Source of the DNA: a virus
Lineage: Duplodnaviria; Heunggongvirae; Uroviricota; Caudoviricetes
DNA length: 13,627 nt
IMG/VR virus record: IMGVR_UViG_2579778952_000003
Reading direction: 5' to 3' (one strand)
The notes under the pieces were generated by a model. That model was not told the DNA's origin. It ran no database searches and worked only from the letters and a program-made list of their open reading frames with translations. The translations under genes and the position numbers were made by a program. The number at the start of each line of letters is the position of its first letter. Positions within the stretch are counted from its first letter, which is position 1. This document shows positions 5,924 through 13,419 of this stretch, piece by piece.

Positions 5924-7069
5924 TTACTTGCCAGCCTGAATTTCCAGAATCTTGATGGCGTTCGAATCCACCACACCACCGCCCAGATATTTCTGGGTAT
6001 AGATGTTAATGAATCCAGGCTCGCTGAAATCCGGACGGGTACGCGTACCGGTTTTATGGTCAACGATGAAATAACCGCGCTTAAAGTCACCGACTGCAAT
6101 CACACCGTCCGGCATAAATTCCAGATATTCAACCGGAAGCCCCAGCAGAGAATCAGGATCACCAGCCTGTAAACGATCGCGCCAGATGTAATCACCAGTG
6201 GCATTTTTCAGTTTTTGTGCGGAGGCGGCTGTATTTGAGTTCATCACCCATACAGCTTTTTTGCGGTACTTATTGCGCAGCGTAAATTTCAGGTCAATCA
6301 GCATATCGGCGCTGAGACTGCCAGTCACTTTTTTCGTCTGGAGCGTACCGAAAGGACGGGTTTTGTCATTATCCGTAGTGCGCGGGAAAGTCAGGAAACC
6401 TTTGGCTTTTTTCTCGCCATCACCGGAAACCAGATCCGTTTCTTCGGTATCAACGAAAGTGTCGCCAATTTCAGAAGATAACCAGCCCATAATATCGACT
6501 TCGGAAAAATCGATAATTTCCTGAGTGGTTTTCGGGTAAGCGTAGATCGGATACAGGCGGATACTGACTTCATTCAGTTTTGGGGTTGCCGTCTGGTTAC
6601 GTGCCGCACCTTCTTCGCCGTGTCCCACGACCGCACCCCCGGCAGAAACCAGTTGCTTAAATTCATTACTGTGAATGGTTTTAACAGTACAGATTTTACG
6701 CATCACCGACTCATCAGAAAGCTGACGCATAATTTCTCTGTTCAGTTCCGGGATAACCGTATAACCACCATCAGCCGGAACACTGCCGGACAGGTTGCGG
6801 GTTTCCCCGGTCAGAATGTAAGAGCGTAGCTCATTTTTGGTGATTTTATCTTCGACGGGAACACCAGGCTGGTTACGTTCTTCATCAGCCACAGACTCGA
6901 GGCGGGAAATTTCTGTGTCGAGGGAATCGGCTTTTGCACGCAGTTCATCAAACTGTTTGCCTTCGTCATCGGTTAGACTGCGGTTTTCACTGTCGGCTTT
7001 TTCCAGCAGGGATCGCATCTGGTTTTTCAGGGCGGTTTTTTGCTGGCGGAGTTCGATTAATTTCTTCAT
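5924..7069 (-). CDS. Major capsid protein, HK97 fold, with N-terminal coiled-coil (delta/scaffold-like) domain (381 aa)
   Basis: N-terminal 100 aa is charged and heptad-like (LRQQKTALKNQMRSLLEKA...); C-terminal region (GYFIVDHKTGTRTRPDF, ILEIQ) is typical of HK97-type capsid proteins. Confidence 0.9.
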   Translation of the reverse strand: MKKLIELRQQKTALKNQMRSLLEKADSENRSLTDDEGKQFDELRAKADSLDTEISRLESVADEERNQPGVPVEDKITKNELRSYILTGETRNLSGSVPADGGYTVIPELNREIMRQLSDESVMRKICTVKTIHSNEFKQLVSAGGAVVGHGEEGAARNQTATPKLNEVSIRLYPIYAYPKTTQEIIDFSEVDIMGWLSSEIGDTFVDTEETDLVSGDGEKKAKGFLTFPRTTDNDKTRPFGTLQTKKVTGSLSADMLIDLKFTLRNKYRKKAVWVMNSNTAASAQKLKNATGDYIWRDRLQAGDPDSLLGLPVEYLEFMPDGVIAVGDFKRGYFIVDHKTGTRTRPDFSEPGFINIYTQKYLGGGVVDSNAIKILEIQAGK

Positions 7070-7137
7070 GAAGGTTTTCTCGCATTGGTTAAGATTCAGG
7101 ACGTGAAACCAACACGGGGGGAGCGCCGCCCGACACT

Positions 7138-7172
7138 CTCGGCATCTCGCAGATCAACCCGGCATCGCGCAG
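7138..7172. repeat. Imperfect 14-15 bp direct repeat (ctcGGCATCtCGCAG / cccGGCATCgCGCAG) in the GC-rich capsid leader
   Basis: Read directly; 20 bp apart, inside the predicted 5' UTR of the capsid operon. Confidence 0.6.
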
Positions 7173-7224
7173 GGGGTCAGGCGGCATTGTGGCGGCTCAC
7201 GTCTGAGTGCCACACGCCAACATA

Positions 7225-7252
7225 TACATAAAAATCAGTATGTAAACATCAA
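7225..7252 (-). promoter_or_regulatory. Candidate sigma70-like promoter for the head/packaging operon
   Basis: Minus strand TTGATG (7252-7247), 16-nt spacer, TATGTA (7230-7225), just downstream of the 7313-7333 terminator and about 150 nt upstream of the capsid ATG. GAACAACC repeats at 7263-7282 lie just upstream. Confidence 0.3.
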
Positions 7253-7312
7253 CCAGAATCACCGAACAACCTGGAACAACCACGAACAAATAATTTACAA
7301 AACCTGAAAAAA

Positions 7313-7333
7313 GGCCCGGAAAAAATCCGGGCC
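7313..7333 (-). terminator. Intrinsic terminator separating the early/replication operon from the head operon
   Basis: Perfect 8-bp stem GGCCCGGA / TCCGGGCC with a 5-nt loop, flanked by A6 on the left and a T-rich run on the right, so a U6 run follows on the minus strand. Dyad is bidirectional. Confidence 0.75.
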
Positions 7334-7342
7334 TTTATCGCT

Positions 7343-7591
7343 TTATTGTTTCACTGGCTCCCGCATTCTGCGTCTTATTTTCCACAAATATTCGATCATC
7401 GCTTCCACCTGCTCACGGTTGGTTGCGAAAATTTCCCCGGTCAGTGAGCTACGCAGAAAATCATGATGATCCACAAAAAATAACGCATCGGAAGAAAGCA
7501 ACCGACGATATTTTTTTGCTGTCGTGGTTTCCAGATCATCAAAACCATGAAGCTTTTTATGTTGCTGAACTTCTTCAAATGTCACTGGCAT
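7343..7591 (-). CDS. Hypothetical protein (82 aa), last gene of the early operon
   Basis: AGGGGGA Shine-Dalgarno just upstream of the ATG at 7591; overlaps the ProQ/FinO-like gene end by 10 nt; followed by the terminator. Confidence 0.55.
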   Translation of the reverse strand: MPVTFEEVQQHKKLHGFDDLETTTAKKYRRLLSSDALFFVDHHDFLRSSLTGEIFATNREQVEAMIEYLWKIRRRMREPVKQ

Positions 7592-8112
7592 GTATCCCCC
7601 TTTGCTGCCCGGCGCTGGCGCTTGTGCTTCTCATTCAGCACCATCAGCCGTGTTTCTGCCTCCTGCTGTTCCTGTGGTGTCACTTCCCCACATGGCTGGC
7701 CTTTCAGGTCGTAACGTGCGCCACCAGCTATCAGGGCGCGGTAATAGCGCGGAGACTGCGCATAGGATGCCAGCGTCGCACGTAATACCCCCGGCCCGAA
7801 TGCCAGCCCCCTGACGGCGATATCCTGCATCAGGTCGTCGAATATCCCCACCTTAAGCGGCTTCGGTGCTTTATGGCTGAATAAGTCAGGCCACATCTCA
7901 GTGAGGCGGTTAACGCGTCGGCGGTTTTTGCGCTGCCTTTTGGTCATATGCTGCCACGGTGTCGCCCCTGTGGGCTTCTGCTGTGCGTTCTGATTGCCGG
8001 GTATCACTTTATGCGCCGATGTGGTTTTATCCTGCTCTTGCGCCGCCTGCGTCGTTTTCTGCGGCGTGCCGTAAATGCCTTTCGGCTTCCGGTTAATGGT
8101 CAGCGTTGTCAT
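7582..8112 (-). CDS. ProQ/FinO-domain RNA-binding protein (176 aa)
   Basis: PLKVGIFDDLMQDI and ASYAQSPRYYRALIAGGARYDLKGQPCGEVTPQEQQEAETRL parallel the E. coli ProQ N-terminal FinO-like domain (PLKIGIFQDL ... [35 protein letters not shown]) as recalled from memory. Basic, Gln-rich N-terminal extension; AGGGGAAGG Shine-Dalgarno. Confidence 0.8.
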   Translation of the reverse strand: MTTLTINRKPKGIYGTPQKTTQAAQEQDKTTSAHKVIPGNQNAQQKPTGATPWQHMTKRQRKNRRRVNRLTEMWPDLFSHKAPKPLKVGIFDDLMQDIAVRGLAFGPGVLRATLASYAQSPRYYRALIAGGARYDLKGQPCGEVTPQEQQEAETRLMVLNEKHKRQRRAAKGDTCQ

Positions 8113-8148
8113 GCCTTCCCCTGTAATTACTCTGTTCGCTGTTGTGAA

Positions 8149-8574
8149 TTAAAACGGTATGTTATCCCCGTACGGGTCATCGTGCTGGCTTGTCTGTTGT
8201 TTTGCCCTGTTCAGTGCGTCAGTGGCCTGGCCCTGTTGACCTTTTTTGCCGCCCGGTCGCGCCGTTCGCGCACTGATTACGCTGTCTGCAATAACCTGCC
8301 AGCCCTGCCGCGTTTCCCCGTTCTGGCCTGTCCACTGGCTCACCTGCATGTTACCCGCCACGCTCACCAGTTCGCCTTTGTGGTGTTTTGCCAGTGCGTC
8401 GGCCTGTCTGCCAAACGCCAGGACAGATAACCACATCGTCGCCGTTCCGTCATCTGCCTGGCTGCACGGCAGGGGAACCGCCATACTCGCCATCGCCATT
8501 TGTGTCCCTTTGCTGGTGGTCTTTAACTGCGGGTCAGCCACCAGCCGCCCGTAAGCCGCTATCTGTGCTGTCAT
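8149..8574 (-). CDS. ssb: Single-stranded DNA-binding protein homologue (141 aa)
   Basis: OB-fold-like core (IAAYGRLVADPQLK ... WLSVLAFGRQADALAKHHKGELVSVAGNMQVSQWTGQNGETRQGW), Gly/Gln-rich linker and an acidic C-terminal tip ending DNIPF (E. coli SSB ends DDDIPF). Confidence 0.8.
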   Translation of the reverse strand: MTAQIAAYGRLVADPQLKTTSKGTQMAMASMAVPLPCSQADDGTATMWLSVLAFGRQADALAKHHKGELVSVAGNMQVSQWTGQNGETRQGWQVIADSVISARTARPGGKKGQQGQATDALNRAKQQTSQHDDPYGDNIPF

Positions 8575-8816
8575 GCTGTCTGCTCTCCGGTTTTAACGTT
8601 GATGGTTGTCACCTGTTCCGCTTCGGCAATCTCCCGTTCTGTCAGCGTGGCAAAGTTTGCCGCTGCCGTGGTCATGAATGCGCTTACCAGTTCGGGATGT
8701 GCTTTTGCGTACCCTTCTCCCGCGTTGCGGTCGATGATTTTTATCGCCACCCTCAGCCAGTGTTCTGTCAAATCAAGGGCGTGAGATTGTGGTTTTTTTG
8801 CGTGCTTCGTTGTCAC
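8571..8816 (-). CDS. Hypothetical protein (81 aa), GTG start
   Basis: GAGGT Shine-Dalgarno 7 nt upstream of GTG at 8816; stop overlaps the ssb start (ATGA). First gene after the iteron block. Confidence 0.5.
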   Translation of the reverse strand: MTTKHAKKPQSHALDLTEHWLRVAIKIIDRNAGEGYAKAHPELVSAFMTTAAANFATLTEREIAEAEQVTTINVKTGEQTA

Positions 8817-8860: not shown

Positions 8861-9090
8861 CCTTCACCTGTTCACCTTTTGAGATTTTCCCTTTTTATTC
8901 ATAATGTTAAGGGGTGAACAGTTTCACAAAAACTATTCACCAACTGTTCACCACTGTTCACCCTTAAAGCTCAATAAATAATCAAAAAGGTGAACAGTGA
9001 ATAGTTTGGTGAACAGTTCACAAATAACTGTTCACCCTATAATGTACTGATATAAAAGATATTTATAACAGGGTGAACAGTGGTGAACAG
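8861..9090. repeat. Iteron array of TGTTCACC / GGTGAACA octamers in both orientations: candidate origin of replication
   Basis: At least nine copies read directly (8868-8876, 8914-8921, 8944-8952, 8954-8962, 8989-8998, 9008-9017, 9029-9037, 9072-9080, 9082-9090) in an AT-rich context directly 3' of the primase gene. TGTTCACC is the octamer bound by P4 alpha protein at ori and crr. Confidence 0.8.
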
Positions 9091-9103: not shown

Positions 9104-10918
9104 TTAATTTTTGCTGTCGTCATTTGTGACCGATGCACATGATGGCATCCAGTCTTCTGAATCCTCTGTCAGTGTCACATTTGAACGCAAACCGTGCTTC
9201 GTTTTCCGTTTTATATACTCCCTGCCATATTCCGCCATTGCCCCCGGCATATCTTTACCGAAGCGCGTCAGTGTTACAGGTTTACCGAATCCGTGTGCCC
9301 TCATATATGCCAGATAGGCGTGATAAAGATACCTGCGCGGACTGAACGGAATAATTTCGGCATTACCCACTAACAGACCATCACACATTACCGACGACAT
9401 GAGATAGCCACAGAAGTCCACCAGCGAATCGCCCTCGCGTTTTATCACCAGAGCTTCTTCTGATTTCTGCTGCTCATACAGCAGGCGTTTAGCTTCGTCC
9501 TGGTCAGAAAAACGAGTAAGCAGATGGCGAATCACAACCGCCAGCTCTCCTTCTATTTTTTCTGCCAGCATGGGGTCGCGCTCGTTCTCCGGTACAACCT
9601 CCGAAAAATTGAATATCACCCGACGACGTGAGATCCCCCCGCTGCGGTCACTGAATGACATGGCGTTATTGTTCACCGCCAGCACGACCGCCTGAATGCG
9701 TGTTGAGTAGGGGGCTTTATGCTTCGGGTCGATTGCCACCTTGTCACCGCCTGTAATAGCCTTAATTCCTGCGCCATCACCAGCGTAGCGGGTCATATCC
9801 GGCATGATAATCAGCGAAAAGCCAACCACTAACGCGCGTTCCCTTGCATCTTCCAGCGCCTTCATGCTTGCCGATACTGTGTTGGCCTTACCCGCCAGCA
9901 TGGTGCAAATCTCCGCCATCACGCTTTTACCACTTCCCCCTGGACCTGTTACCTCAATGAATAACTGCCAGTCGTACCGGTTCGCCAGCACCATGAATAA
10001 TGCAGCCAGCACGCGATCCGTCTTGCGGTCATTCTCTGCCACCGAGCAGCGTAACCACTTCCAGAAATTCGGCGCATGTGTTGCCAGCGTTTCCCCCTCT
10101 GCTGGTGGGCTGAAAGGTAATTCACTGGCAATTAACAACCAGTCGTTTTTGTTATGCTCCCGAAAATTACCTGTTCTGGTATCAAATACCCCGTTACTGA
10201 ATCCAATCAGGTTACGGGCTGTATTCCCCATTACAGGCAAACTTAACTTCATGGTATCGACCGCCGATTTAATGGCGTTCTGCGAATAGCTGATCTCCGC
10301 ATCAATGAAAATCTGCGCCATAGCACGCTGTAACTCTTTATCCTGAATCGGCTCCCATACAACGCCGTTGTAATGGTGAACAGTGTCAGAGTCGGCATGA
10401 ATCGCCAGTTCACCGCCATAATGTGCCAGGAGAACTTCGCCGCGCTGGCTTGCTCCCATCTGGTTAAGCGCCAGTGGTGCGGCGCTGTCTTCTGTTTTTT
10501 TCTTAACAGGAAGCTGAATCACCAGACCATCAGAAAGATTCTGGCGCTCACGGGCCAGATATTCGCGCCAGTTCTGCACCTCCTGGCCGTGCATACCCTC
10601 AGGATAAAAATTTGCATCCTGTACGCCTGCCGCCGCCAGCTTCTGACCAATCGCCTTTATCATTACTGGCGCAAGATATCCGGCCCTGAATATGCGCACG
10701 GATTTTCTGCCTTCCGGCACAATTTGCAGCTTATCCAGTTCGGATAACTGCTGCTCCCCAAGCCACACAGGAGGCTCATTATCTCCGGCCATACGCGCGT
10801 CATGTTCCTGCCATTGTTTTGCGTGTGACCAGGCATCACTACCCGCAAAAATAATGACTTCTGTTTCTTTGTGTTTTATGCCGCGTGACTGCTGTTTTAC
10901 GTTCGGTGCCAGTTTCAT
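9104..10918 (-). CDS. P4 alpha-type primase-helicase (604 aa)
   Basis: Primase-like N-terminal half, Walker A GPGGSGKS in the middle, long C-terminal domain; adjacent to the iterons it would bind. AGGGG Shine-Dalgarno; ATG overlaps the upstream gene's stop (ATGA). Confidence 0.9.
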   Translation of the reverse strand: MKLAPNVKQQSRGIKHKETEVIIFAGSDAWSHAKQWQEHDARMAGDNEPPVWLGEQQLSELDKLQIVPEGRKSVRIFRAGYLAPVMIKAIGQKLAAAGVQDANFYPEGMHGQEVQNWREYLARERQNLSDGLVIQLPVKKKTEDSAAPLALNQMGASQRGEVLLAHYGGELAIHADSDTVHHYNGVVWEPIQDKELQRAMAQIFIDAEISYSQNAIKSAVDTMKLSLPVMGNTARNLIGFSNGVFDTRTGNFREHNKNDWLLIASELPFSPPAEGETLATHAPNFWKWLRCSVAENDRKTDRVLAALFMVLANRYDWQLFIEVTGPGGSGKSVMAEICTMLAGKANTVSASMKALEDARERALVVGFSLIIMPDMTRYAGDGAGIKAITGGDKVAIDPKHKAPYSTRIQAVVLAVNNNAMSFSDRSGGISRRRVIFNFSEVVPENERDPMLAEKIEGELAVVIRHLLTRFSDQDEAKRLLYEQQKSEEALVIKREGDSLVDFCGYLMSSVMCDGLLVGNAEIIPFSPRRYLYHAYLAYMRAHGFGKPVTLTRFGKDMPGAMAEYGREYIKRKTKHGLRSNVTLTEDSEDWMPSCASVTNDDSKN

Positions 10919-11219: not shown

Positions 11220-11453
11220 TTATTCTCCGGTGTGCTGTTCTTTATATCTGTCGTGCAATAGATCTATTTCTTGCAGTTCCATTATTACAGGCTCAAGAAG
11301 CGTTATTAATGCCGTGGCAATTCTTGATTTTTGTTTGTCGCGTTCATTGTCGCCAAGTGTTTCAAGCCATATGCGCAATATTTCCAGCATGTTTTCACTG
11401 TGAGAAAGTGCAAGAAATGCGCGGTCTATTGTTTCGTGGTAAATATCACGCAT
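11220..11453 (-). CDS. Hypothetical protein (77 aa)
   Basis: ORF with GAGGA Shine-Dalgarno; overlaps the upstream gene's stop by 8 nt. Confidence 0.5.
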   Translation of the reverse strand: MRDIYHETIDRAFLALSHSENMLEILRIWLETLGDNERDKQKSRIATALITLLEPVIMELQEIDLLHDRYKEQHTGE

Positions 11454-12039
11454 GGCTTACATCCTCAGGAAATTTTCTTCTATAACGCGCCTCTGCCACA
11501 TATTCCGCATAATCGGCGGCGATATTCAGTACATCAAGCCCCGTTGATTTATATTCTCTCGTGGAAAGTAAGAAAAAAGCCGCTCTAATAAGCTCTGGCA
11601 TTGACGAAAGCGCATCAGCTGCATTATCAGGAACGCCGGAAAATTCCTGTTTCAGGGAATTAAAACGATCATCACGCATGTTTACCCCCCCCTGAATGAC
11701 CTGATAACCGCAACTGGTCAGCAACTCGATAAATTCCGGCAGTGTGCCGAAACAGCAATCATCACGCAGCCGTTCGCAGGATACCTCGACGCCGTTTTCG
11801 TAGTGACTCACCATACATCCGGTAAAATGCAGATCATCATCGTGATGGCTCGTTGACGGCTTAATCAGTCGCGCACGTTCCGCCAGTTCCAGCAATGCTT
11901 CAACGCTTCCGGCAATTGCACCATCCGGCAGGTGATAATTACGCACTATGCGCCCGTTCTCCACATTGACCAGCAACTGCCCGGTAAATTTCTCGTCAAA
12001 CTGAATGCTGTTAAGGTCAGAAATTGACAGGTTATGCAT
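11446..12039 (-). CDS. Hypothetical protein (197 aa from ATG at 12039), Cys-rich, contains a G8 tract in the coding strand
   Basis: Strong AGGAGG Shine-Dalgarno 5 nt upstream of the ATG at 12039 (the track start at 12057 lies inside the Shine-Dalgarno). G8 (plus-strand C8 at 11685-11692) encodes QGGV. Confidence 0.6.
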   Translation of the reverse strand: MHNLSISDLNSIQFDEKFTGQLLVNVENGRIVRNYHLPDGAIAGSVEALLELAERARLIKPSTSHHDDDLHFTGCMVSHYENGVEVSCERLRDDCCFGTLPEFIELLTSCGYQVIQGGVNMRDDRFNSLKQEFSGVPDNAADALSSMPELIRAAFFLLSTREYKSTGLDVLNIAADYAEYVAEARYRRKFPEDVSHA

Positions 12040-12256
12040 GGTGCACCTCCTGCACATCAGCCATGATAATTTTTCCGGCCTTATCCAGTGCCTGATCGGC
12101 TTTTAGCTGCACAAATGCTAAATAATGGAAGATGCATTCTGATTCTCTGGCTGCGTGTTTATGCGCCCTGTCAGCAATAACAGAAATATCAATAAGCGCG
12201 TGCATCAGCGTAGTGAGCGCGGCGGCTGCTGCGTCCGGTGTGGTTTTATTGCACAT
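12032..12256 (-). CDS. Hypothetical protein (74 aa)
   Basis: AGGGGG Shine-Dalgarno upstream of the ATG at 12256; overlaps neighbours at both ends. Confidence 0.5.
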   Translation of the reverse strand: MCNKTTPDAAAAALTTLMHALIDISVIADRAHKHAARESECIFHYLAFVQLKADQALDKAGKIIMADVQEVHHA

Positions 12257-12452
12257 GGCCTACCCCCTGGCGAATACGGGCAGCGAATACCATCACGCAG
12301 CCAGCCGGGGATTGCTGGCGTGCTTCCTGTTCGCTGGTGGCCTCAATGGTAATCACGCGCGGTTGTGCCGTGCTCAGGGCGATAAAACGCCAGATGTATT
12401 TATTCAGGTTGTACGAGTCCCGCCCTTGCGGGTGTCTGGTATAATTTCTCAT
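12246..12452 (-). CDS. Hypothetical protein (68 aa), first gene of the early operon
   Basis: GAGGT Shine-Dalgarno 5 nt upstream of the ATG at 12452 (MRNYT...). This is the credible 3' portion of the 305-aa track ORF, whose upstream part is rejected. Confidence 0.5.
   Translation of the reverse strand: MRNYTRHPQGRDSYNLNKYIWRFIALSTAQPRVITIEATSEQEARQQSPAGCVMVFAARIRQGVGHVQ
12437..12445 (+). promoter_or_regulatory. Extended -10 promoter element TGgTATAAT on the plus strand, antisense to the first early gene
   Basis: Perfect TATAAT at 12440-12445 preceded by TG at 12437-12438; a plus-strand terminator follows 45-85 nt downstream. No good -35, which an extended -10 can do without. Confidence 0.3.
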
Positions 12453-12530
12453 AGCTACCTCGATACTATCGTTATCGTTGGTGGTTAGAAGCCCGTTGGT
12501 GTTCCTAGCGCCTTCGGGCTTTGCTTTTTT
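12452..12530 (+). ncRNA. Candidate cis-antisense small RNA (about 75-80 nt) complementary to the ribosome-binding site and start of the first early gene
   Basis: Inferred only from the promoter-like element at 12437-12445 plus the terminator at 12489-12530. Not demonstrated. Confidence 0.25.
12489..12530 (+). terminator. Candidate plus-strand intrinsic terminator in the switch region
   Basis: AAGCCCG (12489-12495) pairs with CGGGCTT (12515-12521); an alternative compact GCC-UUCG-GGC hairpin sits inside the loop; followed by TTTGCTTTTTT. Confidence 0.4.
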
Positions 12531-12545
12531 AAGTGTCCCTGTGTT

Positions 12546-12591
12546 AAGGTGACCACCTAACAATAGAAAGGCTAATTCAATAGGTGACCAC
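12546..12591. promoter_or_regulatory. Two direct copies of (A/T)AGGTGACCAC, each containing the GGTnACC palindrome, flanking a TAGA-containing spacer; candidate operator
   Basis: Copies at 12546-12557 and 12581-12591; the second overlaps the likely Shine-Dalgarno (AGGTG) of the Arc-like gene. Confidence 0.4.
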
Positions 12592-12783
12592 TTGTCAACA
12601 ATCAAACGTGATAAAAGCCCTAAGGGTGATGGGCAATCCCCACAATTCAGAATGCGAATTTCTCCAGAGCTAAAAGAGCAATTCGACAAAGAAGCGCAGA
12701 GCGACGGCATAAGCCTAGCCAACTGGCTTAAAGAGTTGGGGCGCGCTGAACTAAAGCGGCGCGGTATAGAACCCAAAGGTTGA
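12592..12783 (+). CDS. Arc/Mnt-like ribbon-helix-helix DNA-binding protein (63 aa with TTG start), divergent from the early operon
   Basis: PQFRMRISPELKEQFDKEAQSDGISLANWLKEL parallels P22 Arc (PQFNLRWPREVLDLVRKVAEENGRSVNSEIYQRV) and Mnt (PHFNFRMPMEVREKLKFRAEANGRSMNSELLQIV) as recalled from memory. An ATG start at 12652 would cut the beta-strand, so TTG at 12592 is favoured. Confidence 0.65.
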   Translation: MSTIKRDKSPKGDGQSPQFRMRISPELKEQFDKEAQSDGISLANWLKELGRAELKRRGIEPKG

Positions 12784-12921
12784 TAGCCCACCAGCAAGCC
12801 AGCACATTCACCATAATGACCCTCGGTTAAACCTAGAGTCATTGGTGTAAACCTGACAGATTGTCCACCAGCCGCAAATGTGGCATTGTTGGTGATGCTT
12901 TTGTTTTCCCTTGTTCCCACT

Positions 12922-12950
12922 GGCGACCCTTTTGCGGTCGCCTTTGTTTT
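12922..12950 (+). terminator. Plus-strand intrinsic terminator downstream of the Arc-like gene
   Basis: GGCGACC-cttttgc-GGTCGCC (7-bp perfect stem) followed by TTTGTTTT. Confidence 0.6.
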
Positions 12951-13045
12951 GCCTGTTATCCGGCAATAGTGGCGCTTCACCACACGGTTGATATAATTCC
13001 CCTGCACTGATCCATTTTTTTCGCAGCAGGTTAATTGTTCAGAAA

Positions 13046-13073
13046 GGCGGTTCCTTATCGGGGCCGCTTTTTT
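13046..13073 (+). terminator. Possible second plus-strand terminator
   Basis: Short GC stem (GCGG ... CCGC) followed by a T7 run. Stem is weak. Confidence 0.3.
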
Positions 13074-13188
13074 TATGCCTGAAAATACCCGATAACATGG
13101 CTTTTTAGTTTCACCAGGACGAACGAAGCCCCGCCCCTGTTCGGGCGTATATCCAGTATTCATGGTTAGATCTCTGTGTTAGTGGATG

Positions 13189-13215: not shown

Positions 13216-13419
13216 TTAGTGAACTGCCTCGCGGCTGTCCTTCCATGCCAGAACTTCGGATAAAGACCAGCCAACGGAACGACCGCCGAGTTTACGCCGT
13301 GATGGGAATTGTCCAGTCTTCTCCAGGCGATACCGACATGAGCGGCTCAGGCCTGTAAGTTGCTGACATTCTTTTTCACGTATAAAGCGATCAGCGCTTA
13401 ACACTATTGCCTCCGTCAT
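13216..13419 (-). CDS. alpA: AlpA-family transcriptional regulator / excisionase-like protein (67 aa)
   Basis: LTGLSRSCRYRLEKTGQFPSRRKLGGRSVGWSLSEVLAW matches the AlpA (prophage CP4-57 regulator) helix-turn-helix signature. GGAGG Shine-Dalgarno 5 nt upstream of the ATG. Confidence 0.85.
   Translation of the reverse strand: MTEAIVLSADRFIREKECQQLTGLSRSCRYRLEKTGQFPSRRKLGGRSVGWSLSEVLAWKDSREAVH

Follow-up and report, generated by a model that had tools for sequence, protein, structure and literature searches.

Sequence comparison points to a single-stranded-DNA-binding protein gene and a FinO-like gene as two independent, optional cassettes of a capsid-forming phage satellite of Escherichia coli

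When a phage satellite codes side by side for a single-stranded-DNA-binding protein (SSB) and for a protein of the ProQ/FinO family, do the two genes form one functional unit, or are they separate passengers with separate roles? This question is raised by a DNA of 13,627 nt from the IMG/VR virus record IMGVR_UViG_2579778952_000003, which is referred to here, at its full length, as the window. Its gene content identifies the window as a capsid-forming phage-inducible chromosomal island (cf-PICI) of E. coli. A preliminary description of the window had reported an SSB homologue and a ProQ/FinO-domain RNA chaperone as adjacent, translationally linked genes of the replication module, which implied that they belong together. 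The coordinates given there (7582-8574) are exact and enclose two complete open reading frames (ORFs) on the - strand. The implied unit did not hold, however, since each of the two genes occurs alone in related islands. The comparison of sequences indicates that ssb and the FinO-like gene are each an optional cassette, independent of the other and located between the primase/origin region and the capsid module. The features in question are:

8149..8574, - strand: ssb, coding for an SSB of 141 residues with an oligonucleotide/oligosaccharide-binding (OB) fold at residues 1-103 and a disordered linker at residues 104-136
8152..8166, - strand: codons for the C-terminal SSB tip D-N-I-P-F (the ORF ends ...HDDPYGDNIPF)
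8113..8148, - strand: spacer of 36 nt between ssb and the FinO-like gene, with its own Shine-Dalgarno (SD) sequence AGGGGAAGG
7582..8112, - strand: FinO-like gene, coding for a basic protein of 176 residues (isoelectric point, pI, 10.3) with Pfam domain PF04352
7945..8112, - strand: N-terminal extension of the FinO-like protein (residues 1-56), with a conserved MTxLTINRK motif, a variable Q/T-rich linker and W53
7600..7944, - strand: basic helix and ProQ/FinO domain (residues 57-171), with pocket Y123/R133, N-cap R111 and turn G89

Loci used for comparison carry labels of the form L019. The two genes are adjacent in cf-PICIs with a D5-type primase (the window and L019-L021), in a cf-PICI with an unrelated DUF927 primase (L022), in a Citrobacter island (L007), and in classical PICIs from E. 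coli, E. albertii and Salmonella, where a PerC gene follows (L002-L006, L012, L016-L018). The pair is thereby found behind two unrelated types of primase and before three different downstream modules. In two further islands (L014 and L015) a PerC gene lies between ssb and the FinO-like gene. Six islands carry ssb without the FinO-like gene (L023-L027, L029); a tblastn search with the FinO-like protein gave no significant match and no remnant in L023-L027, and the annotation of L029 lists none. The FinO-like gene is found without ssb in L011 and L028.

The window and the SSB-only islands are homologous exactly as far as the ssb stop codon (8149), and with the FinO-only islands the shared stretch is 7596-8121, which represents only the ORF and its SD sequence. 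The recombination breakpoints thus coincide with borders of genes. Between the window and L002, the SSB is 95% identical but the FinO-like protein only 74%, so that the histories of the two genes must differ. Of the linkage that had been described, the adjacency stands but the translational coupling does not: the ssb stop at 8149 and the FinO-like start at 8112 are separated by 36 nt with a separate SD sequence, and the overlaps that do exist involve the flanking genes orf81 and orf82.

A 993-bp query spanning both genes matches 1491 of 5426 complete E. coli genomes. In a rough count on an evenly spaced sample of 30 of these 1491, the SSB part only was matched in 23 rows, the FinO-like part only in three, and both genes in four. 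A related variant of the FinO-like gene accounts for about 4000 indexed blocks in the assembly collection, and a profile scan of genome contigs with the family alignment returned two loci from a collection that holds one genome per species. A 1.6-kb region is 100% identical to chromosomal islands of E. coli JP538 and other strains, while no phage genome carrying the window DNA was found in the phage collection.

Strain EDL933 has a single island of this type, located between roxA and phoQ, which codes for an SSB and PerC but has no FinO-like gene. By island size, gene content and its single copy in the genome, this appears to be EcCIEDL933, the cf-PICI prototype. EcCIEDL933 is the only island for which experiments have established that a helper phage induces it and that it is transferred in small capsids of its own making that carry helper tails (10.1101/2022.09.08.507074). 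For this prototype, induction, replication and transfer are reported; if the two are the same, the FinO-like protein is not core to the cf-PICI life cycle.

What kind of protein, then, is specified by the FinO-like cassette? It matches the ProQ/FinO profile PF04352 with E=1.2e-23 (83.5 bits, cut-off 27) along residues 64-168, covering 104 of the 109 profile positions. With the NCBIfam models for FinO (NF010317, 65.5 bits, cut-off 136) and ProQ (NF003434, 58.4 bits, cut-off 127), it scores below both cut-offs, and in the AlphaFold2 (AF2) model the protein stops five residues past the last domain helix, with no ProQ-type C-terminal domain. Therefore, we consider it a superfamily member that is an orthologue of neither FinO nor ProQ. 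When compared by phmmer with solved structures, it matched ProQ, FinO, NMB1681 and RocC. Among 1.84 billion representative proteins searched by profile, 4491 are relatives at E<=1e-3, yet no more than 19 reach E<=1e-30, so the protein belongs to a small clade inside a large family. FinO-domain proteins from phages are distant from it (26-41% identity). A "truncated 82-aa ProQ" in its 90% cluster turned out to have the sequence of orf82, the overlapping downstream gene, and thus does not represent a FinO-like pseudogene.

The AF2 model, computed with the family alignment, is confident for residues 58-171 (predicted local distance difference test, pLDDT, of 84-96 in the domain) and contains helices at residues 58-73, 90-100, 107-118, 121-129 and 146-171 and strands at residues 132-134 and 140-143, which correspond to the helical bowl and two-stranded beta-hairpin of the FinO fold. 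A Foldseek search with this model gave 26 matches in the PDB at E<=0.001, all of them to FinO, NMB1681, RocC or the Legionella ProQ homologue with probability 1.0. The top structures were 3mw6, 1dvo, 7rgt and 7rgu, with target-normalised template-modelling scores of up to 0.84 and root-mean-square deviations (rmsd) of 2.0-2.5 A.

The extension that precedes the domain is basic, as had been noticed: residues 1-56 have a pI of 10.1 and are followed by TKRQRKNRRRVNR. The model is disordered to about residue 50, with pLDDT <50 at residues 1-5 and 11-45. In the family alignment, M1 and T5 are invariant, L4, I6, R8 and K9 are at least 90% conserved, and the basic stretch TKRQRKNRRR is positioned after W53, ahead of the conserved domain. 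The motif LT[IL][KN]R[KR] is common to this N-terminus and those of FinO, FopA and the protein from plasmid pSYM9, but it is absent from ProQ.

Within the domain, Y123 and R133 are invariant throughout the clade and in FinO, FopA and ProQ, and R111 is kept in 90% or more of the clade. Upon alignment of the window protein with FinO, FopA, the pSYM9 protein and ProQ, the residues P75, G89, I90, Y123, R133, G138, A152 and L156 are invariant. For this alignment, FinO was reconstructed from a frameshifted F-plasmid copy and FopA was taken from pCol1B9. The ProQ N-terminal domain was entered with what we take to be its sequence, which agrees with the HMMER alignment. Y123/R133 correspond to Y70/R80 of ProQ in the HMMER alignment and to Y146/R157 of FopA. 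In the RocC-RocR structure, this Tyr/Arg pair forms the pocket for the 3'-terminal nucleotide of the terminator (PMC9674577, PMC7491321). The RocC pocket is Y87/R97 and its N-cap is R75 (R58 in ProQ), with the equivalence of the RocC numbering inferred from PMC9674577. From the conserved pocket and the FinO-type N-terminal arm we predict that the FinO-like protein binds RNA ends that consist of a hairpin plus a 3' tail, and that it has RNA chaperone activity.

Among the known systems, FinO from F-like plasmids (PDB 1DVO) has the same architecture, a basic N-terminal extension followed by the FinO domain, without a ProQ-type C-terminal domain. In both proteins a tryptophan precedes the basic helix (TPPKW...KVKKQK in FinO, TPW53...TKRQRKNRRR in the window protein), the folds match with probability 1.0 and an rmsd of 2.0 A, and both are encoded on mobile elements. 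However, sequence identity is only about 29-30%, and the window gene, unlike that for FinO, is part of a phage satellite operon beside replication genes, with neither a FinP/traJ system nor conjugation genes. FopA (YafB; IncI plasmid pCol1B9) and PcnR (IncI2) are also FinO-domain proteins from mobile elements with a distinct basic N-terminal region; the identity between FopA and the window protein is 35% over 83 residues, in the domain only. FopA and PcnR are involved in antisense-RNA control of the replication of their own replicon (PMC7491321, PMC8053102). The window island differs from these plasmids in having no Inc-like antisense RNA or Rep leader, because its replication depends on iterons and a primase-helicase, and in that the FinO-like gene is dispensable in related islands.

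The N-terminal domain of E. coli ProQ matches the FinO domain from the window with E=1e-11, and the best structural match is NMB1681, the minimal ProQ from Neisseria. Residues for recognition of terminator 3' ends are kept as in ProQ and NMB1681. However, the linker and the Tudor-like C-terminal domain of ProQ are both missing in the window protein, while its N-terminal extension is missing in ProQ. The FinO-family protein from pSYM9 (L010, NZ_CP060068.1; 213 residues) shows about 30% identity to the window protein over 97% of the length and shares the N-terminal motif in the form LTIKRR.

Small, non-mobilisable plasmids of 11-13 kb from Citrobacter and Enterobacter, such as pSYM9, code for a DUF927 primase together with the FinO-family protein of 213 residues. 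They may be episomal relatives of PICI replication modules.

The SSB scores above cut-off with Pfam PF00436 (E=4e-16, 59.4 bits, cut-off 26) and with TIGR00621 (62.7 bits, cut-off 53.95), it matches PHROG 44, "single strand DNA binding protein", with E=1.5e-39, and phmmer against solved structures returned SSBs only. In the AF2 model, computed with the family alignment, residues 1-103 form an OB-fold beta-barrel (pLDDT 75-90), while residues 104-141, including the tip, are a disordered tail (pLDDT <50). Foldseek found 190 PDB matches at E<=0.001, of which the top 50 are all bacterial SSBs with probability 1.0. Both folds that the preliminary description led one to expect were thus recovered by profile search and by structure prediction, and the profile matches are too strong to be a chance pattern.

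The DNIPF ending, which had been likened to the tip of E. coli SSB, is conserved in the family. Among 20 aligned members, D137, P140 and F141 do not vary, while conservation of I139 is 90% or more. The GDNIPF tip is matched by the terminal DDIPF of a plasmid SSB. W48, F54 and W81 are also invariant and presumably correspond to W54, F60 and W88 of E. coli SSB, a match made by eye against the E. coli sequence as we take it to be rather than by an alignment tool; in the same reading, Leu49 would be aligned to His55. The ssb gene is under purifying selection, with a ratio of nonsynonymous to synonymous substitution rates (dN/dS) of 0.08-0.25. Plasmid and phage SSBs with a host-type tip, such as that from the leading region of IncI and F plasmids, resemble the window SSB in the OB fold, the conserved aromatic residues and the acidic tail ending in IPF, and are likewise encoded on a mobile element beside its own replication or establishment genes. 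The window SSB is short, however, with 141 residues and a linker of about 35, has only 23% identity to the SSB from pCol1B9, and is encoded in a PICI early operon instead of a conjugative leading region.

The surroundings of the two cassettes are defined by the following features:

9104..10918, - strand: P4/D5-type primase-helicase, the replication initiator (Pfam D5_N, DUF5906 and Pox_D5; TIGR01613 "primase, P4 family", E=1.8e-27)
8868..9090, no strand assigned: origin-like AT-rich iteron field (32% GC) with ten copies of GGTGAACAG in both orientations, nine exact and one with a single mismatch
8571..8816, - strand: orf81 (PHROG 1231, unknown function), its stop overlapping the ssb start as ATGA
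7343..7591, - strand: orf82 (PHROG 1957, unknown function), sharing 10 nt with the end of the FinO-like gene; no further gene follows it in the early operon
7310..7336, - strand: intrinsic terminator at the end of the early operon, a perfect 11-bp inverted repeat of the form AAAGGCCCGGA-TTTTT-TCCGGGCCTTT with a U run behind it

In leftward order, and with the genes of this series all running leftward, the window carries alpA (13216-13419), an icd-like gene, several small ORFs, a DUF4222 gene, the primase gene, the iterons, orf81, ssb, the FinO-like gene, orf82 and the terminator. Beyond it follow the genes for capsid, protease, portal, connector, HNH, TerS and TerL. AlpA is matched in Pfam with E=3.4e-18. 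The window therefore combines PICI regulatory and replication genes with a packaging module of its own, without tail or lysis genes, which is the gene content of a cf-PICI. The annotations of the packaging module and the Pfam matches were taken from loci that are 99.5-100% identical to the window at the protein level, from capsid to primase; in these loci an integrase gene is found just outside the window. This cf-PICI layout has been described by Alqurainy et al. (10.1101/2022.09.08.507074). EcCIEDL933 shares with the window int, alpA, icd-like, DUF4222, primase/rep, small ORF and SSB, and also capsid, protease, portal, connector, HNH, TerS and TerL (10.1101/2022.09.08.507074). The differences are that the EDL933 island has a DUF927-type rep gene and, after SSB, a PerC gene (annotated as PchE in strain Sakai) and no FinO-like gene, while the window has a D5-type primase and carries the FinO-like gene and orf82 in the slot of PerC.

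Placement of the two genes in the replication module was borne out, as the primase gene and the ten iterons adjoin. Altogether, GGTGAACAG is matched 16 times in the window against 3.1 expected, a number reached in none of 200 shuffles, and ten of these matches are within 8868-9090. This iteron field, between primase and orf81, is probably the replication origin of the island. Rfam matches at 8883-9063 (MIR821, MIR5380) are spurious microRNA-hairpin matches caused by the inverted iterons. The terminator at 7310-7336 has a fold energy of -25.3 kcal/mol (z=-5.4) and, with U runs on both sides, is bidirectional in form. Other islands (L002-L006, L007, L014, L019 and L022) have equivalent terminators directly behind the final gene of the block, and this recurrence puts both cassettes close to the 3' terminus of the early operon. 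A consensus scan for terminators was only weakly enriched (25 found, 16.1 +/- 4.6 expected) and missed the real terminator at 7310-7336. Antisense terminators that it predicted inside ssb and the FinO-like gene were, for these reasons, not relied on.

About 65 nt downstream of the terminator, a promoter-like site (TTTACA-16-TATGTT) is found on the - strand at 7219-7246, and between it and the capsid gene there is a GC-rich leader of about 150 nt. The packaging genes may thus form a transcription unit of their own, under separate control. The structure of the capsid-gene 5' leader at 7066-7225 is not unusual (z=-1.55).

The two small flanking genes are both very common. Behind D5-type primases orf81 accompanies ssb in L014 (89% identity) and L019-L021, and ORFs of similar size adjoin ssb in L023-L026. 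In cf-PICIs orf82 accompanies the FinO-like gene, in the slot that is held by PerC in classical PICIs; the index of the assembly collection has about 3000 blocks with orf82. That orf82 might be a divergent PerC was ruled out, as it does not align with PerC and has no Pfam match. PADLOC assigned no defence-system family to SSB, the FinO-like protein, orf81 or orf82.

The PICI in L023 (E. coli O157:H7 SS TX 313-1, NZ_CP038302.1 2791440-2809862) has been found inside the large-terminase gene of a resident prophage, which is left as two pseudogene halves. It contains a primase gene, orf81, SSB and a ClpP-protease/capsid fusion gene.

Given this context, the SSB is most likely a replication helper. 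After induction it would coat the single-stranded DNA made when the primase-helicase fires the adjacent iteron origin, and its conserved D-x-I-P-F tip would plug into host replication proteins that interact with SSB, so that island replication would depend less on the host SSB pool. This role is derived from the established biology of SSBs. The FinO-like protein would be a monomeric RNA binder with the architecture of FinO and FopA, a basic N-terminal chaperone arm plus the FinO domain, in which the Y123/R133 pocket would clamp hairpin-plus-3'-tail ends as they occur in intrinsic terminators. The cassette moves as a bare ORF, with no non-coding partner linked to it, and the most likely targets are therefore generic ones, or RNAs that are present in any induced cell. 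Candidates are transcripts of the island that end in a terminator, for example at the end of the early operon, transcripts of the helper phage, and small RNAs (sRNAs) of the host. Its role may be one of tuning, by stabilisation of RNAs or promotion of duplexes, rather than a core step of the satellite. On balance we lean towards this interpretation, a broad-specificity terminator binder that acts on island, helper or host RNAs after induction, with SSB and the FinO-like protein as optional cassettes.

Other interpretations depend in part on the switch region at the right end of the window, which contains:

~12246-12452, - strand: icd-like (cell-division-inhibitor-like) gene of 68 codons, inside a long, probably spurious ORF of 305 codons (12246-13163)
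12592-12783, + strand: Arc/YlcI-like gene, divergent from the leftward operon
12922-12942 and ~13047-13075, + strand: intrinsic-terminator hairpins between the YlcI-like gene and the convergent alpA

Between PICI types that otherwise diverge, the DNA of the icd-like gene is conserved to 85-90%. A conserved block of 245 nt (12263-12507) was considered as a non-coding element but was rejected because it represents the icd-like ORF. Its leader has a hairpin (~12497-12530) with arms that vary between islands in an apparently compensatory manner, an observation made without statistics. Beside the start of the Arc/YlcI-like gene, two exact palindromic GTGGTCACC sites (12548-12591) flank a promoter-like stretch for the leftward operon that contains TTGACA. 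Together with the Arc/YlcI-like gene, these sites look like the putative operator-repressor switch of the island. RNAs that end at the + strand hairpins (12922-12942, ~13047-13075) would be antisense to read-through from alpA. Should the FinO-like protein have a target encoded by the island, these RNAs are the most obvious candidates.

All characterised FinO-family proteins of mobile elements belong to antisense systems of plasmids (FinO/FinP-traJ, FopA/Inc-repZ, PcnR; PMC9977716, PMC7491321, PMC8053102). By analogy, and along the lines of the antisense-RNA control suggested in the preliminary description, the FinO-like protein and one dedicated cis-antisense RNA of the island could set the induction switch or the copy number. 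The FinO/FopA N-terminal motif and architecture of the window protein fit such control, as do the convergent units in the switch region, where the + strand YlcI/Arc-like gene and then the terminators face alpA. However, the exchanged cassette is only the ORF with its SD (7596-8121), no non-coding partner coming along, and blocks of the switch region recur in L023, which has no FinO-like gene (11450-12492, 88%; 12853-12951, 74%). Moreover, the functional prototype island of EDL933 is devoid of the gene, and, microRNA artefacts aside, neither C4-type antisense RNAs nor any other known Rfam family was detected at E<=10 in the window, including the switch region. We thus consider dedicated antisense control unlikely. 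The same grade applies to a more far-reaching interpretation, in which the conflict between satellite and helper would have its first RNA chaperone in the FinO-like protein, which after induction would capture terminator-ended regulatory RNAs of helper or host, or the convergent ylcI/alpA transcripts of the island; this, too, seems improbable to us. If true, it would shift the timing of late gene expression of the helper or of the island's own switch, and it would explain why a portable cassette without partner spreads among PICIs with different replication and packaging modules.

An effector directed at host or helper would be a cargo protein that rewires host sRNA networks, by competing with or replacing ProQ, or that sequesters regulatory RNAs of the helper phage, to the advantage of the lysogen or of the satellite in its conflict with that phage. 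The optional, shuffled FinO-like gene occupies the same variable slot as PerC-family regulators, for which effects on host virulence genes are documented (PMC11773190), and minimal FinO-domain proteins can bind globally (PMC7272453). But the gene is inside the early operon with only an SD sequence upstream and no independent promoter was found for it, so that expression in an uninduced lysogen is not evident. We give this explanation a slim chance, and it overlaps in part with the preferred one, which allows targets in trans. Finally, SSB and the FinO-like protein might work as one pair at the replication fork, either on RNA primers or R-loops at the origin combined with strand coating, or by binding each other. 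As neighbours they share one strand and one operon, origin and primase come directly before them, this adjacency is kept behind two different primase families, and FinO-family proteins have repeatedly been tied to DNA metabolism (PMC9977716). Against such a pair, each gene is common without the other, PerC intervenes in L014 and L015, the identities to L002 differ (SSB 95%, FinO-like 74%), and the two genes are not translationally coupled, which makes it very unlikely.

Several points count against the interpretation as a broad-specificity terminator binder and two optional cassettes. Although the dN/dS of 0.30-0.43 for the FinO-like gene corresponds to purifying selection, it indicates a rather relaxed constraint. 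SSB, too, can be lost, because the cf-PICI copy in L019 (8007-8428, GCA_022180125.1) carries a frameshifted or shortened ssb with a product of 120 residues, the tblastn match falling in two frames, while its FinO-like gene is intact. The census of SSB-only islands versus those with both genes is based on the megablast sample of 30 rows and seven inspected loci, and is rough and limited by the sensitivity of megablast. The transcription of both genes in the distal part of the early leftward operon is deduced from sequence features, as are the operon boundaries, and the putative promoter and operators near 12550-12610 were read by eye. Nucleic-acid binding by the two proteins, and their expression only upon induction, are proposals.

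RefSeq already annotates a "single-stranded DNA-binding protein" and a "ProQ/FINO family protein" in identical E. coli islands. In the PICI literature searched, we found no functional treatment of ssb or the FinO-like gene, and in the literature searched no functional study of a FinO-family protein in a phage satellite. In two recent papers a "ProQ/FinO-like" gene appears only as an entry among the accessory genes of satellites (PMC13612085, PMC13230959), and a review of the family places phage- and plasmid-borne members in an "eclectic" branch, with no satellite member characterised (PMC9977716).

In summary, the biology of the SSB is plausible but ordinary, while the FinO-like protein is optional and uncharacterised. 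The FinO-family proteins characterised so far are from plasmids (FinO, FopA, PcnR) and chromosomes (ProQ, RocC, NMB1681). The clade described here is common and resides in inducible islands whose prototype is an established genetic model. In these islands, the variable slot after the primase gene carries SSB, FinO-like and PerC genes in differing combinations, which would represent shuffled cassettes and not a fixed replication machine.

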